Shown here: piece by piece, positions 1-32,339 of the stretch
Layout: each line of letters begins with the position of its first letter
How positions within the stretch are numbered: the first letter of the stretch is position 1
Virus record (IMG/VR): IMGVR_UViG_2541047823_000003
Reading direction: 5' to 3' (one strand)
From: a virus
Taxonomy: Duplodnaviria > Heunggongvirae > Uroviricota > Caudoviricetes
Length of the DNA: 32,947 bases
The notes under the pieces: model-generated
Told to the model about the DNA's origin: nothing
The model's input: only the letters and a program-made list of their open reading frames with translations
The model's database searches: none
Position numbers and translations under genes: made by a program

Positions 1-665
1 GAGCCTTCCCCCAAACCAAGGTAATTGAGGACATCTTTTATACTGCCCTTAGCGATAATAGCGCGACCAATAGCTGTAAGGGTTGCCAGCGCTGCTCGGT
101 CTGCTCCGGTAAAATAAGGCAACCGATCTGCTGCAGTGGCAAGTCCTGCCAGAGCAGTGAGCGTGGCATCTGCCGGTTGTTTTCCGTTTGCCAGATCGTA
201 TGCAGCCTTGACCGCTTTCGGTGTGGCGGCCAGTATTTCAGACGTGCTGTTGATGGCACTGCTCAATTGTACGGTGCCTTTTGCCGTCAGCGAGGCAGCA
301 GGCACTCCCGTTATCTGACTCCACGGGTGAGTGTGGCTGACGGGCGCCTTGCCGGCTGCAAGGTCGTATGCAGCCTTGACCGCTTTTGGTGTGGCGGCCA
401 GCGTTTCAGAGGTGCTGTTGGTGGCACTGCTCAGTTGGGTGAACCCCTTAGCTGTCAGTGTCGCGTCCGGGTGGTTACGGGAACGTACGTGTTCAGCCAG
501 TGACTGTGCGGCTTCCTCCGTTTTCTTCTTCAGCCATTTCGTCCTGTTTGCCAGTTGCCGGGGGGCTCGATTTGATATCCCGTCTGCACCACCCAGAACC
601 GGATCTGATGTCTCCAGTTGATAGATATTTTCTTCCCACTTTTCTGTTTCATTCAGGTTTCCCAT
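1..665 (-). CDS. Tail fiber protein, N-terminal part (partial; gene continues beyond the left window edge)
   Basis: ATG at 663-665 directly after the stop of the upstream gene; manual translation gives MGNLNETEKWEENIYQLETSDPVLGGADGISNRAPRQLANRT... followed by two copies of the tail-fiber repeat LTAKG(F/T)xQLSSAxNSTSExLAATPKAVKAAYDLAxGK; frame appears open to position 1. Position matches Mu S / P2 H at the end of the tail module. Confidence 0.7.
   Translation of the reverse strand, partial: MGNLNETEKWEENIYQLETSDPVLGGADGISNRAPRQLANRTKWLKKKTEEAAQSLAEHVRSRNHPDATLTAKGFTQLSSATNSTSETLAATPKAVKAAYDLAAGKAPVSHTHPWSQITGVPAASLTAKGTVQLSSAINSTSEILAATPKAVKAAYDLANGKQPADATLTALAGLATAADRLPYFTGADRAALATLTAIGRAIIAKGSIKDVLNYLGLGEG
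175..480. repeat. About 168-bp (56-aa) in-frame tandem repeat inside the tail fiber gene, two copies
   Basis: cgtatgcagccttgaccgcttt(c/t)ggtgtggcggccag recurs at about 197 and 365; plus-strand ORFs 136..318 and 331..621 have near-identical translations. Confidence 0.6.
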
Positions 666-667
666 AA

Positions 668-1246
668 TCAACTGCTCCCGTGGTTATAACTGCCATCATG
701 GATGGCAGTATTGTTATAGCGAATGGCCACAGACTGATACTCCAGGCTGGCCAGATGGCAGCGGGCCGGTGCAAATGCAGCCAGCGTCTGACGCAGCATC
801 GCGGCCTGATCGTTAGTAATGGGCTGTTTCAGAATAACGCGATAAACTGCCCAGGCGGCTGCATCTCCATGAACAAACAGTCCGTTATAGCTGCGATTGC
901 CGTCGTAACTGAGACGACCTGTGCCTTCAATCAGATCCACTTCACCAAAGCCAAAACGGCGGATAACTTCCCGGATTGACCACGGCGTCCCTTTATACCG
1001 GTGCAGTTCGATGGCTGCTTTTATAAGCATGCGGCGAACATCGTCCGATTCCGCCAGCTCCCAGCCATCGCCAGACAGTGAGAACTGCTCGCCCAGCCAT
1101 GGCAGCGCGGAACTGTCGACGATATCGACGAGAAAGACCATCAGTACGCTCAGGTCGATGTTATCCAGCCGTCCTGCCAGTCTTCCCAGCGTCCTGAGAC
1201 TGATATCACCCTCAAGCGGTGGCGGGAGTTGTAATGGCTCAGTCAT
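668..1246 (-). CDS. Baseplate/tail protein, P2 gpI / Mu gp48-like
   Basis: 192-aa ORF between the baseplate J-like gene and the tail fiber, coupled to both neighbours; size and position match P2 I-type tail protein. Confidence 0.65.
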   Translation of the reverse strand: MTEPLQLPPPLEGDISLRTLGRLAGRLDNIDLSVLMVFLVDIVDSSALPWLGEQFSLSGDGWELAESDDVRRMLIKAAIELHRYKGTPWSIREVIRRFGFGEVDLIEGTGRLSYDGNRSYNGLFVHGDAAAWAVYRVILKQPITNDQAAMLRQTLAAFAPARCHLASLEYQSVAIRYNNTAIHDGSYNHGSS

Positions 1247-2342
1247 CAGACACTCCAGTCATGTTAAGAGTGATTGCCGTACAGTTTGCCCATTCGTTTT
1301 CTGCCACCACCCGCAGTGCCGGTGTCACCAGTTCAACCTGGTACACCCCGGAAACGGACAATGCACTGATAATCTGGCTGGGGACAATATCGCGCCCCAG
1401 CGTGGCGGCACGTGATGCCACCCAGTTCTGTATGGCGCTGTTAGCGGCATCTTTTACAGACCTGGCATCCTGATCACGATAGATCGTAATCCTGGCTTCA
1501 ATGGTGTAATCCACCTTCACTGGTGTTTTAGCCCGCACTGTATCAGTGAGTGGCCTGACTTTCTCATCAGAGCAGAAACTCTCTACCAGCGTGAGAACAC
1601 CGCCGTCCGGCAGACCGGTACTGAGCAGCGGATACAGATCTACGGTCCCGGGAACCGGGGAAAGCACAGCAACATCGACAATGTTGGGATGGGCCTGCAT
1701 GGCATGAAAGCGGTATGCGCCACGGCTTCCGGCATTGGTGAATGACTCCGGGGCCAGCCTGATACGCTCCCGGAGCCTGTCATCGTCTTCCTGTTCTGAA
1801 CCGCCGGAACTGGCCGTCAGATTGCTCACCAGCAGGTCGACGTTATCAATCTCATCGAGTAACTGACTGACCTGCGCAGGTTGCCAGCCGTTACCAGCGG
1901 TACCGGGTTCGGTACAGGTGGACGTGACATTGACCAGCAGCAATCCGGCCTTCAGTACCACATCTGTATCGGTGGCAAAAATAACGCTGTCGGAAGCGCT
2001 GACGCGGGTGCCTGCCGGGATCAGCACATCAATGGCCAGCGCCTCATCTACGGAGAACTGGAGCGTGGTGGTGGCAGGCTGCGCGGCAAGACGGTATACA
2101 CCAACCAGTTCACCGAGGTAATCAATCATCGGCTCACGGGCAAAGGCGACCAGATTCTGCTTTGCTGCCTCCTGTACCGCAACCCTGACCAGCATTTCGC
2201 GATAGGCCCACAGATCAATCAGCAGACGTTCTGCCTGTGCCGGGTACAGCGTTTTGCCGGTATCCGCTTCATACTTCGCAATCATTTCTGCCGTGATTTT
2301 GTCGGCATCGCGTTCAATAAAATCGGGTTCTGTCAGCGCCAT
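1239..2342 (-). CDS. Baseplate J-like protein (Mu gp47 / P2 gpJ family)
   Basis: 367-aa ORF; its start overlaps the stop of the upstream W-like gene (atggcgctga); position and size typical of baseplate J. Confidence 0.75.
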   Translation of the reverse strand: MALTEPDFIERDADKITAEMIAKYEADTGKTLYPAQAERLLIDLWAYREMLVRVAVQEAAKQNLVAFAREPMIDYLGELVGVYRLAAQPATTTLQFSVDEALAIDVLIPAGTRVSASDSVIFATDTDVVLKAGLLLVNVTSTCTEPGTAGNGWQPAQVSQLLDEIDNVDLLVSNLTASSGGSEQEDDDRLRERIRLAPESFTNAGSRGAYRFHAMQAHPNIVDVAVLSPVPGTVDLYPLLSTGLPDGGVLTLVESFCSDEKVRPLTDTVRAKTPVKVDYTIEARITIYRDQDARSVKDAANSAIQNWVASRAATLGRDIVPSQIISALSVSGVYQVELVTPALRVVAENEWANCTAITLNMTGVSDD

Positions 2343-2680
2343 AGCAGCTCCTGAGTCCGGGTCTGTCCGTCTGAGCCTTTCCAGCTCACCCGGAGCGTAA
2401 GATGTTCGCCGTCGACGGCGGGTTTAACTGACATAAGCTGGCAGCGGGGCTCCCAGCGCCGGATGGCATCGACGGATTCGCGCACCACATGCGGAATGGC
2501 CCGGTCTACAGGCTAGTCGATATAAAGATGCAGATTGCTGCCGAACTCCGGGCGATGCGGGTCGCTGCCGCGGGGAGTCCGCAGGATAATTTGAATCGCC
2601 TGCCGGATATCATCCAGCCCCCGGACAATTTCGCCGGGAGCCTGCAGGGCTGGTTGCCAGAATACTGAGGTTGTTTTCAT
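2333..2680 (-). pseudogene. Baseplate wedge protein, GPW/gp25 family (Mu gp46-like), interrupted by an in-frame TAG at 2513-2515
   Basis: Manual translation from ATG 2678-2680: MKTTSVFWQPALQAPGEIVRGLDDIRQAIQIILRTPRGSDPHRPEFGSNLHLYID*PVDRAIPHVVRESVDAIRRWEPRCQLMSVKPAVDGEHLTLRVSWKG...; both halves fit the GPW/gp25 pattern (PxFG..L..Y.D.P ... WEPR) in a single frame; neither half reaches 60 aa, so the ORF track shows nothing here. Confidence 0.6.
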
Positions 2681-31329: not shown

Positions 31330-31343
31330 CCGGGAGGCATTCA

Positions 31344-31559
31344 ATGGCTGACATACTCAGGGAAATCACCGCATGGACACTGATTCTTACTGGCCTGGCG
31401 ACATGCCTCAGTGCGGGGGCAGCCCTGGCTGCCCTGCTGATGCACATAACAACACAGTGGTTATGGGAAAAGCTTAAAGCAGCATACAGCCTGAAAGAGC
31501 TGTCCGACGCTGTCCGGGCATGGAAACGGCAGAAAAATACCGGAGATACAGAACAATGA
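31344..31559 (+). CDS. Small membrane protein
   Basis: 71-aa ORF with GGGAGG RBS; one hydrophobic helix (ITAWTLILTGLATCLSAGAALAALLMHI). Confidence 0.4.
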   Translation: MADILREITAWTLILTGLATCLSAGAALAALLMHITTQWLWEKLKAAYSLKELSDAVRAWKRQKNTGDTEQ

Positions 31560-32239
31560 CAGACCAGAATAAACACATTGAGAAACTGAAAAAGTTGCTG
31601 GCGCTGGCCGCATCCGGCAACCCGCACGAGGCCGCTCTGGCACTGCGCCGAGCCCGTAAACTGATGGATGTTCACGGCATCACACATTCCGACATTGCTA
31701 TGAGTGATATTGATGAAACCATCAGTCATTACTGGCCGACAGGCAGTCTCCGTCCACCGCGCTACATGCTGGGCCTGATGAACATCATCCGCGAGGCATT
31801 TGGTGTTAACTCCATCATTCACCCCGGCACGCATCCGTCTGTGGGGTTCTACGGTAACCGGGAACGAGCGGCACTGGCTGCGTACACCTGGGAAGTGCTG
31901 GTCCGCCAACTGAAAAAGGCGCGTCAGCAGTATATCAGCGCACAGAACAAAAGAATAAAAAACGCCACCCGTACCAGCCGTGGAAACCAGTTTGCTGAAG
32001 GCTGGGTACTGGCCGTTATCAGTGAAATACAGTCCTTTGCCCTGACCGATGATGAGCGTGAACTGATGCAACAGTGGCTGGAACATAAATACCCGCAAAC
32101 GCAAACCACCAGGGCGCGTAAACCGGGAAGAAGCCGCAATGGCGACGCCTCGCGCTATGCGGGGTTTCGTGAAGGGCAGAACGTCAGACTGCACCGCCCG
32201 GTCAGTGGGCAGGAACAACAGAAACTGGAGGCCAGATGA
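31556..32239 (+). CDS. DUF2786-like protein (last early gene before the IS element)
   Basis: Track ORF 31520..32239; likely start at the internal Met (MTDQNKHIEKLKKLLALAASGNPHEAALALRRARKLMDVHGI), whose N-terminal motif matches DUF2786 as I recall it; 4-nt overlap with the upstream gene. Confidence 0.5.
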   Translation: MTDQNKHIEKLKKLLALAASGNPHEAALALRRARKLMDVHGITHSDIAMSDIDETISHYWPTGSLRPPRYMLGLMNIIREAFGVNSIIHPGTHPSVGFYGNRERAALAAYTWEVLVRQLKKARQQYISAQNKRIKNATRTSRGNQFAEGWVLAVISEIQSFALTDDERELMQQWLEHKYPQTQTTRARKPGRSRNGDASRYAGFREGQNVRLHRPVSGQEQQKLEAR

Positions 32240-32339
32240 TTACGCTATCAGGTAACAGCCGGAAATTAAAAGCCTGCCGAATATCTGCCAGATACCTTTT
32301 TGCCCGCGCCTTTTTTAAGAACGTCAGGCCGGGGATCAC

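Follow-up and report, generated by a model that had tools for sequence, protein, structure and literature searches.

Evidence for a BcepMu-like transposable prophage of Escherichia coli with opposed arms and a transposase outside the MuA sequence family

Introduction

Phages of the BcepMu type carry their genes in two oppositely oriented clusters, between which the lysogeny-control genes are located (PMC2771037), and are treated here as a family-level group in the sense of Summer et al. 2004 and Lavigne et al. 2009. The family description used here comes from PMC2771037, PMC2628397 and PMC2920897, all of them later papers citing the original BcepMu work. In the present study, we analyzed a stretch of viral DNA of 32,947 nucleotides (IMG/VR record IMGVR_UViG_2541047823_000003; hereafter the window), which very probably covers 32.3 kb from the interior of an E. 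coli prophage, a BcepMu-like transposable myovirus of ~36 kb. The element is already known: it is annotated in RefSeq, and a near-identical phage has been deposited under Bcepmuvirus. Likewise, both its divergent layout and a transposase unlike that of Mu have been in print as BcepMu features since 2004. Our analysis refines this picture in three respects, namely the structural kinship of the transposase to TnsB, IstA and MuA, a target duplication of 6 bp, and the decay of this particular copy.

Phage Mu, the other obvious reference, has nearly all genes in a single orientation, c being placed at the very end, a collinearity that the window lacks. Insertion of Mu duplicates 5 bp of target DNA, and its transposase MuA works with an AAA+ partner, as do TnsB and IstA. 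The TnsB/TnsC and IstA/IstB pairs differ from the system studied here in that they belong to Tn7 and CRISPR-associated transposons or to the insertion sequence (IS) IS21 and not to phages.

Gene layout and collinearity with BcepMu

For the gene list, an open reading frame listing of the window was combined with what RefSeq annotates in E. coli CE10, a match at 99.9% identity. Between positions 1 and 25157, 31 of 32 genes are minus-strand genes, with 23,313 coding bases in total; the lone plus-strand gene of this late arm is a 158-amino-acid gene at 22527-23003. The early arm (25208-32239) has all 12 of its genes on the plus strand, and the arms meet at 25157/25208 across a 50-bp gap. This is the arrangement that an earlier sequence-only reading of the same DNA had described, with a minus-strand late arm and a plus-strand early arm meeting at the immunity locus. 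That reading had also placed a transposable prophage at 1-32300. The transposable prophage stands, but it is incomplete in the window: a tail-fiber gene crosses position 1, and unbroken prophage sequence ends at 32339, where an IS3-family element starts. In close relatives, ~2.7 kb of further prophage lies to the left of the window and ~1.3 kb beyond the IS, the latter comprising two small genes as well as the gemA-like gp16 and mor. Both prophage ends are consequently outside the window, and this truncation, together with the degraded state of the copy described below, had gone unnoticed.

A comparison with BcepMu- and Mu-family genomes, proposed along with the suggestion that the element is BcepMu-like, came out clearly in favor of that suggestion. 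Searching the 45 window proteins against BcepMu (NC_005882) by tblastn, we found matches for 33, in the same order and at 31-76% identity (mean ~52%), with the late-arm genes on one strand of BcepMu and the early-arm genes on the opposite one; the transposase and ATPase are among the orthologous pairs. The late arm alone contributes 27 collinear matches to BcepMu gp21-gp51, which follow the order lysis, Mu-like head and packaging, and P2-like tail. Against Mu (NC_000929), only six of the 45 proteins gave a match, namely Gam, the large terminase TerL, the portal, F, G and the baseplate protein gp47.

The window also shows several of the traits by which the group is described. Its opposed clusters meet at a repressor/Ner-like locus as in BcepMu and phiE255, with lysogeny-control genes at the interface, and an rve (Tn552/IS1604-related) transposase gene is followed by one for an ExeA-like AAA+ protein; Pfam finds rve and AAA_22 in the BcepMu proteins too. 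The early order (ner-like gene, regulator, DUF3102, TnpA, AAA+) is likewise that of BcepMu. There are differences as well. The host is enterobacterial, the cargo genes next to the repressor are not those of BcepMu, and the acyltransferase gp53 is absent. Downstream of the ATPase gene, the window has a Mu-type Gam, whereas BcepMu has SSB, HU and DUF3164.

Among phage records searched by megablast, Escherichia phage PhiKM (PQ738613.1), deposited from a uropathogenic strain and filed under Bcepmuvirus in the NCBI taxonomy, matches at 99.2% identity over 189-20037 and at 96.3% over most of 20038-32339. The best match among complete E. coli genomes is strain CE10 (NC_017646.1), with 99.90% identity over 189-32826. 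PhiKM and the prophages of CE10, IAI39 (NC_011750.1) and SF-173 (NZ_CP012631.1) are essentially the same element, with gene order and strands shared. CE10 carries the IS3 element at the window's position, while IAI39, SF-173 and PhiKM are without it, and the late genes are intact in SF-173 and PhiKM. At ~86% identity, Klebsiella phage KP12 and Phi06_2974 B keep the window's gene order on both sides of the arm junction. BcepMu-like prophages are common in E. coli, given that 530 of 5426 complete genomes (~10%, about one in ten) hold at least 80% of the query 29000-32947.

Relative to Mu, the whole block from c to mor reads in reverse, as it would in a Mu-type prophage whose early region had been inverted locally in this genome. 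The sequence-only reading had kept such an inversion as the alternative to a family trait, and rightly ranked it second. We give it practically no credence: it fails because seven relatives (PhiKM, KP12, Phi06_2974 B, BcepMu and the CE10, IAI39 and SF-173 prophages, two insertion sites being represented among them) are collinear with the window across the junction. The divergent layout is, moreover, the published BcepMu organization as outlined in PMC2771037, the matches to Mu are few, and the transposase is not MuA by sequence. Gene order and strand in these relatives thus mark the opposed arms as the ancestral layout of the phage family and not as a rearrangement.

Transposase and AAA+ partner

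The DDE transposase TnpA (589 amino acids) is encoded at 26686-28455 on the plus strand, and the next plus-strand gene (28466-29632) encodes its AAA+ transposition partner (annotated as 'ExeA family', with a MuB/TnsC-like role; AAA_22 at 3.7e-20). An rve-type DDE core with an AAA+ partner had been proposed from the sequence, and Pfam places rve and AAA_22 in exactly these neighboring genes. The catalytic triad D160, D254 and E290 forms a DD35E motif that is invariant in a family alignment of 122 sequences. Full-length comparison puts the transposase at 68.5% identity to BcepMu gp09 and at 56-57% (56.5%) identity to the transposases of Pseudomonas phage B3 and B3-like phages, and the ATPase at 58.7% identity to BcepMu gp08. 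The transposase family counts 1077 representatives at 50% clustering (E up to 0.001) and is spread over Enterobacterales and Burkholderia. In B3 and B3-like phages such as JBD25, the transposase is encoded by a minus-strand gene at a distance of ~5-8 kb from an end of the record, as in BcepMu; in the account given in PMC2771037, B3-like phages are siphoviruses with different structural modules.

An alignment with MuA, held out by the sequence-only reading as a finding that would overturn it, did not emerge at the sequence level. BLASTP of the transposase against MuA gave a non-significant E of 0.47, and hhalign found no significant alignment of MuA with either of two family profiles, the 122-sequence profile reaching a probability of 0.16. 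The Pfam scan of the transposase returned rve alone at E values up to 10, whereas MuA has HTH_Tnp_Mu_1, HTH_Tnp_Mu_2, DDE_2 and Mu-transpos_C. When the profile was searched against sequences in the PDB, retroviral integrases (1e-10) and Tn7 TnsB (6.6e-7) were found, and no MuA chain was among the 60 best matches. The nearest NCBIfam models, IS481 and IS21, both stayed under their cut-offs. By sequence, then, the transposase belongs to a family other than MuA. Both hhalign comparisons did contain a weak placement of window residues ~340-410 against MuA ~463-541, an equivalent post-catalytic region, which we do not count as evidence.

The predicted fold shows a different side of this relationship. 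A first AlphaFold model built on a shallow alignment (24 sequences, 67-98% identity) was discarded, with a predicted local distance difference test (pLDDT) score of 59.6 and a catalytic core below 50. The model used here was built on the 122-sequence alignment of 50%-identity representatives and reached a pLDDT of 90.3; in it, residues 3-139 are helical, residues 156-329 form an alpha/beta core and residues 369-430 contain beta strands. Its best Foldseek match is TnsB of ShCAST (E 5e-18, ~536 columns), followed by IstA (2e-15) and Tn7 TnsB (2e-13), proteins with which the window transposase shares 13-17% sequence identity. MuA is also matched, through the transpososome chain 4fcy_A, at E 3e-9 over 494 columns. 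Matches extending over 400-540 columns, with an AAA_22 gene adjacent, show that by fold the transposase has the multi-domain build of the MuA/TnsB/IstA group. According to the model, it shares the MuA-type architecture of N-terminal DNA-binding helices, DDE core, beta-barrel and C-terminal tail, the match to MuA being weaker than those to TnsB and IstA. In the PHROGs database, the transposase and MuA both fall into phrog_310, where the transposase leaves about the first 128 profile positions uncovered, and the ATPase and MuB both fall into phrog_296.

The contrast with a MuA-like domain layout drawn by the sequence-only reading consequently survives for sequence and Pfam composition but is overstated where fold and PHROG membership are concerned. 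The use of the AAA+ partner as part of that contrast has to be given up: MuB itself matches AAA_22 at 1e-21, and the partner cannot separate a BcepMu-like from a Mu-type element because both have an AAA_22 ATPase next to a DDE transposase. For comparative work on AAA+-guided transposition, the enzyme offers a handy phage-borne relative of TnsB and IstA.

Termini, target duplications and insertion sites

We determined the prophage ends in close relatives, whose termini (TGATGCGCC...TCTAATCA) resemble those of BcepMu. In CE10, IAI39 and SF-173, the left end reads TGATGCGCCGCGCGATAAATG... and the right end ...TCTAATCA, in agreement with the BcepMu ends at most positions. The CE10 element (locus L002, 2729-40107; ~37 kb as a whole) lies within the Ail/Lom gene of another prophage, and this lom-gene insertion is flanked by the 6-bp duplication ATGTGC in both CE10 and IAI39, where the site is the same. 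An empty site rebuilt from the flanks and one copy of the repeat was identical to intact lom genes at 400 of 400 positions. The SF-173 prophage, with all genes intact, occupies a lambdoid J gene with the same termini and the 6-bp duplication CCCCAC. The lineage therefore inserts by transposition, since two unrelated sites share TG...CA ends and 6-bp duplications. The sequence-only reading had anticipated terminal TG...CA, as found in the relatives, together with a 5-bp duplication, which turned out to be 6 bp; for the E. coli lineage, the ends and the duplication length are hereby fixed.

These sites also bear on whether the element might be a P2-like integrative prophage with a passenger IS-type (IS481/IS3-like) transposase and a life cycle without transposition. 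The P2-like tail genes would fit that explanation, as would the two nearest NCBIfam transposase models (IS481 and IS21), albeit both are under cut-off. Neither an integrase nor a cos-type terminase was seen in the window, however; head and packaging genes are of Mu type (Mu F, Mu G and a TerL with 49% identity to Mu gp28) and are accompanied by Gam, and the transposase-ATPase pair is placed like A and B of transposable phages. The whole 37-kb element is, furthermore, bounded by TG...CA and 6-bp duplications at two unrelated sites in genes of other prophages. We consider a purely integrative life cycle to be almost certainly wrong and retain the reading of a BcepMu-like transposable prophage.

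As a side observation, the prophages of CE10, IAI39 and SF-173 each reside within a lambdoid prophage adjoining sitABCD (L002 2296-2730 and 40107-40280; L006 3468-3752 and 40967-44167). Relative to sitD, the insertion in the J tail-tip gene of SF-173 has the opposite orientation to the lom insertions of CE10 and IAI39.

Decay of the copy

Several lesions set this copy apart from an intact phage. Three minus-strand late genes are interrupted by amber codons: the baseplate wedge gene gpW (TAG at 2513-2515; Trp56 in PhiKM), a 93-amino-acid gene in the tail region (9207-9209; Trp61 in PhiKM) and the small terminase gene (19586-19588; Gln150 in PhiKM). These changes (TGG or CAG to TAG) are common to CE10 and IAI39, while the genes are intact in SF-173. 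A TGA stop in a 193-amino-acid cargo gene (23506-23508, minus) is peculiar to the window, CE10, IAI39 and SF-173 each having this gene unbroken. Where the unbroken prophage sequence ends, the 5' part of a small plus-strand gene (32236-32339), which is intact with 231 nt in IAI39 and SF-173, is cut by one end of the IS3-family element (32340-32826, minus; C-terminal region of the transposase, NCBIfam transpos_IS3 at 2.1e-46). In CE10, the IS at the same site is flanked by the 3-bp repeat CAC, and two small genes follow, as do the gemA-like gp16 and mor. A group II intron that runs past the window (32827-32947, minus) in turn splits the IS3 transposase gene with its 3' end at 32826/32827, and matches in E. 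coli have an annotated ltrA beside an IS3 transposase. The intron is the sole match in an Rfam scan of the window (RF00029 at 32827-32913; 64.9 bits, E 8.9e-11). Compared with CE10, IAI39, SF-173 and PhiKM, the window alone adds this intron in IS3 and the TGA codon.

IS3 and the intron separate gemA/mor from the early promoter. Most likely, this copy is a defective, immobile relic, because the early promoter is separated from the late activator and because essential late genes carry nonsense codons. It would thus be a decaying element nested among other mobile elements. The opposite view, that the same BcepMu-like prophage is still functional and inducible despite the stops and the IS, draws on the intact state of every other gene, on 99% identity to PhiKM, on the readability of the three shared ambers by a suppressor tRNA, and on a promoter in or after the IS that could express mor. 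We judge it improbable. The small terminase and gpW are normally essential, and a search of the window for tRNA genes found none. Since CE10 and IAI39 have the ambers in common and share one insertion site, an element that no longer moves was probably passed on vertically, and the IS and intron, as noted, stand between the early promoter and gemA/mor. The exclusive use of amber codons was also considered as a hint of suppressor-dependent control and rejected: given the codons that the window uses, TAG is the outcome of 67% of transition routes to a stop, which makes three of three ambers unremarkable (p ~0.3).

Some points weigh against the overall reading of a decayed BcepMu-like transposable prophage. 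The termini and target duplication are seen only in close or 99.9%-identical relatives and not in the source genome, and the exact configuration of prophage, IS3 and intron junction occurs in no complete E. coli genome of the collection. The ambers could be overcome by suppression or complementation, and mor could still be expressed from an internal promoter. Nucleotide similarity to BcepMu is low: by blastn, 34% of the prophage bases align at a mean identity of 67.8%, and megablast gives no match. The strict ICTV genus criterion is ~70% nucleotide identity genome-wide. Measured against BcepMu, the window falls below this limit for Bcepmuvirus, even though PhiKM is filed there. Because only 34% of bases align, at 68% identity, the relationship is one at family level, and 'BcepMu-like' as used here is a family-level and not a genus-level statement.

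Arm junction and proposed life cycle

At the junction, the minus-strand gene at 24696-25157 encodes a c/cI-like helix-turn-helix repressor (Pfam HTH_31/HTH_3; PHROG transcriptional regulator/repressor families) with 38.5% identity to BcepMu gp17 by tblastn. The first early-arm gene (25208-25396, plus) encodes a small Ner/Cro-like helix-turn-helix protein (HTH_31; phrog_925), 45% identical to BcepMu gp16. A candidate early promoter, TTGACA-17-CATAAT (25132-25160, plus), points into the early arm and agrees with the sigma-70 consensus at 11 of 12 positions; its spacer contains a perfect 16-bp palindrome, GAGAACAATAGTTCTC (25140-25155), as a candidate operator. We infer promoter and operator function for 25132-25160 from these motifs.

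In the lysogen, the repressor would bind the palindrome inside the promoter and keep the prophage silent. Derepression would start a rightward early operon expressing the Ner-like protein, the transposase, the ATPase and Gam, and later GemA and Mor. The transposase would then bind imperfect repeats at the TG...CA termini and, together with the ATPase, transpose with 6-bp duplications, thereby replicating the phage. Late transcription, running leftward from a point upstream of the holin gene, may be switched on by a Mor-family activator whose gene sits at the distal end of the early arm, and the late arm would provide lysis proteins, Mu-like heads filled by headful packaging, and P2-like contractile tails. 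A Mu-type terminase packages by headful with host DNA at the ends, as described in PMC2771037 and PMC2920897. By analogy, we infer a Mor-dependent late promoter, replicative transposition and headful packaging with host DNA for this phage type, and hence a lifestyle presumably the same as that of Mu; the P2-like tails of the window, in contrast, are a difference from Mu.

The remaining early genes are all on the plus strand. A winged-helix regulator (25449-25757) and a DUF3102 protein (25768-26682), both assigned by Pfam and PHROGs, precede the transposase and match BcepMu gp12 and gp10. Downstream of the ATPase, 29635-32239 holds in turn a small hypothetical gene, Gam (29932-30462; Phage_Mu_Gam at 3.7e-40, 61.5% identical to Mu Gam), four small hypothetical genes and a DUF2786/DUF7168 protein assigned by Pfam (31556-32239).

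Cargo beside the repressor

Between the lysis genes and the repressor sits a low-GC cargo block of three genes (22527-24699; GC 0.42-0.45, the range also found over 23000-26000). The plus-strand gene mentioned above (22527-23003) encodes a 158-amino-acid protein with a P-loop-like GSGKS motif (phrog_3787; weak AAA_30 match only), named 'ABC transporter ATPase' in RefSeq, for which tblastn found no BcepMu homologue. The 193-amino-acid protein (23041-23622, minus; phrog_12025), a pseudogene in the window, has hydrophobic stretches according to its translation. The third gene (23713-24699, minus; phrog_10002) encodes a 328-amino-acid protein with one central hydrophobic helix, VVVLGGVLVLVAIFFVGMIVFAG, and is likely to specify a single-pass membrane protein; since the two genes overlap where the repressor gene ends and this one starts, co-transcription with the repressor in the lysogen is probable. 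The N-terminus of this protein is weakly Flk-like (2.9e-12, far under cut-off). PADLOC returned no match for it and nothing convincing among the cargo or early genes. The membrane protein and the P-loop-like protein could form a superinfection-exclusion or defense module that is as yet uncharacterized. PhiKM differs here, with 82% identity or no match over ~22990-26700 and an annotated DNA adenine methylase gene.

Late arm and tail-fiber segment

All late modules described here lie on the minus strand. The lysis cassette (20035-22396), which matches BcepMu gp21-gp26, comprises a holin (22046-22396; Holin_2-3 at 1.6e-41), an SLT-domain endolysin (21303-22043; SLT at 1.8e-14), an Rz-like gene (20669-21319) and two small genes, one of them annotated as a membrane protein. 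The Mu-like head and packaging module (11330-20035; Pfam Phage_Mu_Gp27) has 44-67% amino acid identity to BcepMu gp27-gp38. It contains the small terminase/DUF3486 gene (19490-20035, the pseudogene described above), the large terminase (17898-19493), the portal (DUF935, 16402-17898), Mu F-like and Mu G-like genes, the protease/scaffold (13809-14924), the major head protein (12841-13794) and head-tail joining genes. Four of the head and packaging genes also match Mu F, G, gp29 and gp28, with 47% identity in the case of Mu F; the portal, Mu G and the baseplate gp47 are homologous between the two phages as well.

For the P2-like tail and baseplate module (668-11340), the annotations of CE10 and PhiKM agree, and the genes show 31-76% amino acid identity to BcepMu gp39-gp51 by tblastn with the order kept. 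From the junction side, it consists of the tail sheath (9913-11340), the tail tube, a small hypothetical pseudogene, a tail assembly protein and the tape measure (5566-8517), followed by gpU, gpX, gpD, gpV, gpW (pseudogene), gpJ and gpI. At the window's edge, the 5' part of a P2 gpH-like tail-fiber gene (1-665) is open to position 1 with 221 codons without a stop. It continues outside the window, in a position that agrees with the tail-fiber genes of PhiKM and IAI39.

Directly left of the window, in the relatives, a serine recombinase gene lies beside a tail-fiber/assembly segment with ~135-bp inverted repeats (CE10, L002 2807-5165; IAI39, L005 40049-41819). The segment with the assembly protein WP_000072166.1 has opposite orientations in CE10 and IAI39, which points to a host-range switch of the Mu/P1 style, similar to the G segment of Mu. 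Recombinase and invertible segment distinguish the E. coli relatives from BcepMu, reported to be without them in PMC2771037. With its BcepMu backbone, invertase tail-fiber switch, Mu-type Gam, low-GC cargo probably co-transcribed with the repressor and possible exclusion or defense module, the enterobacterial branch may constitute a lineage not yet formally described, a suggestion that we offer as tentative and rather doubtful.

Three further observations concern the tail region. In the PhiKM record ('partial genome'), a truncated tail-fiber gene is joined to a stretch of ~344 bp (20233-20576) that is not phage DNA and bears the annotation Fe2+ ABC transporter permease, directly after which the phage right end follows, with the left end and the invertase missing; the ~344 bp could be packaged host DNA or an assembly artifact. 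The tape-measure gene contains a direct repeat with a unit of ~290 bp (6167-6459 versus 6428-6719, 91% identity) and measures 2952 nt in the window compared with 3213 nt in SF-173, that of PhiKM being interrupted by a sequencing gap. Repeated units are present in the N-terminal region of the tail fiber (1-437) as well.

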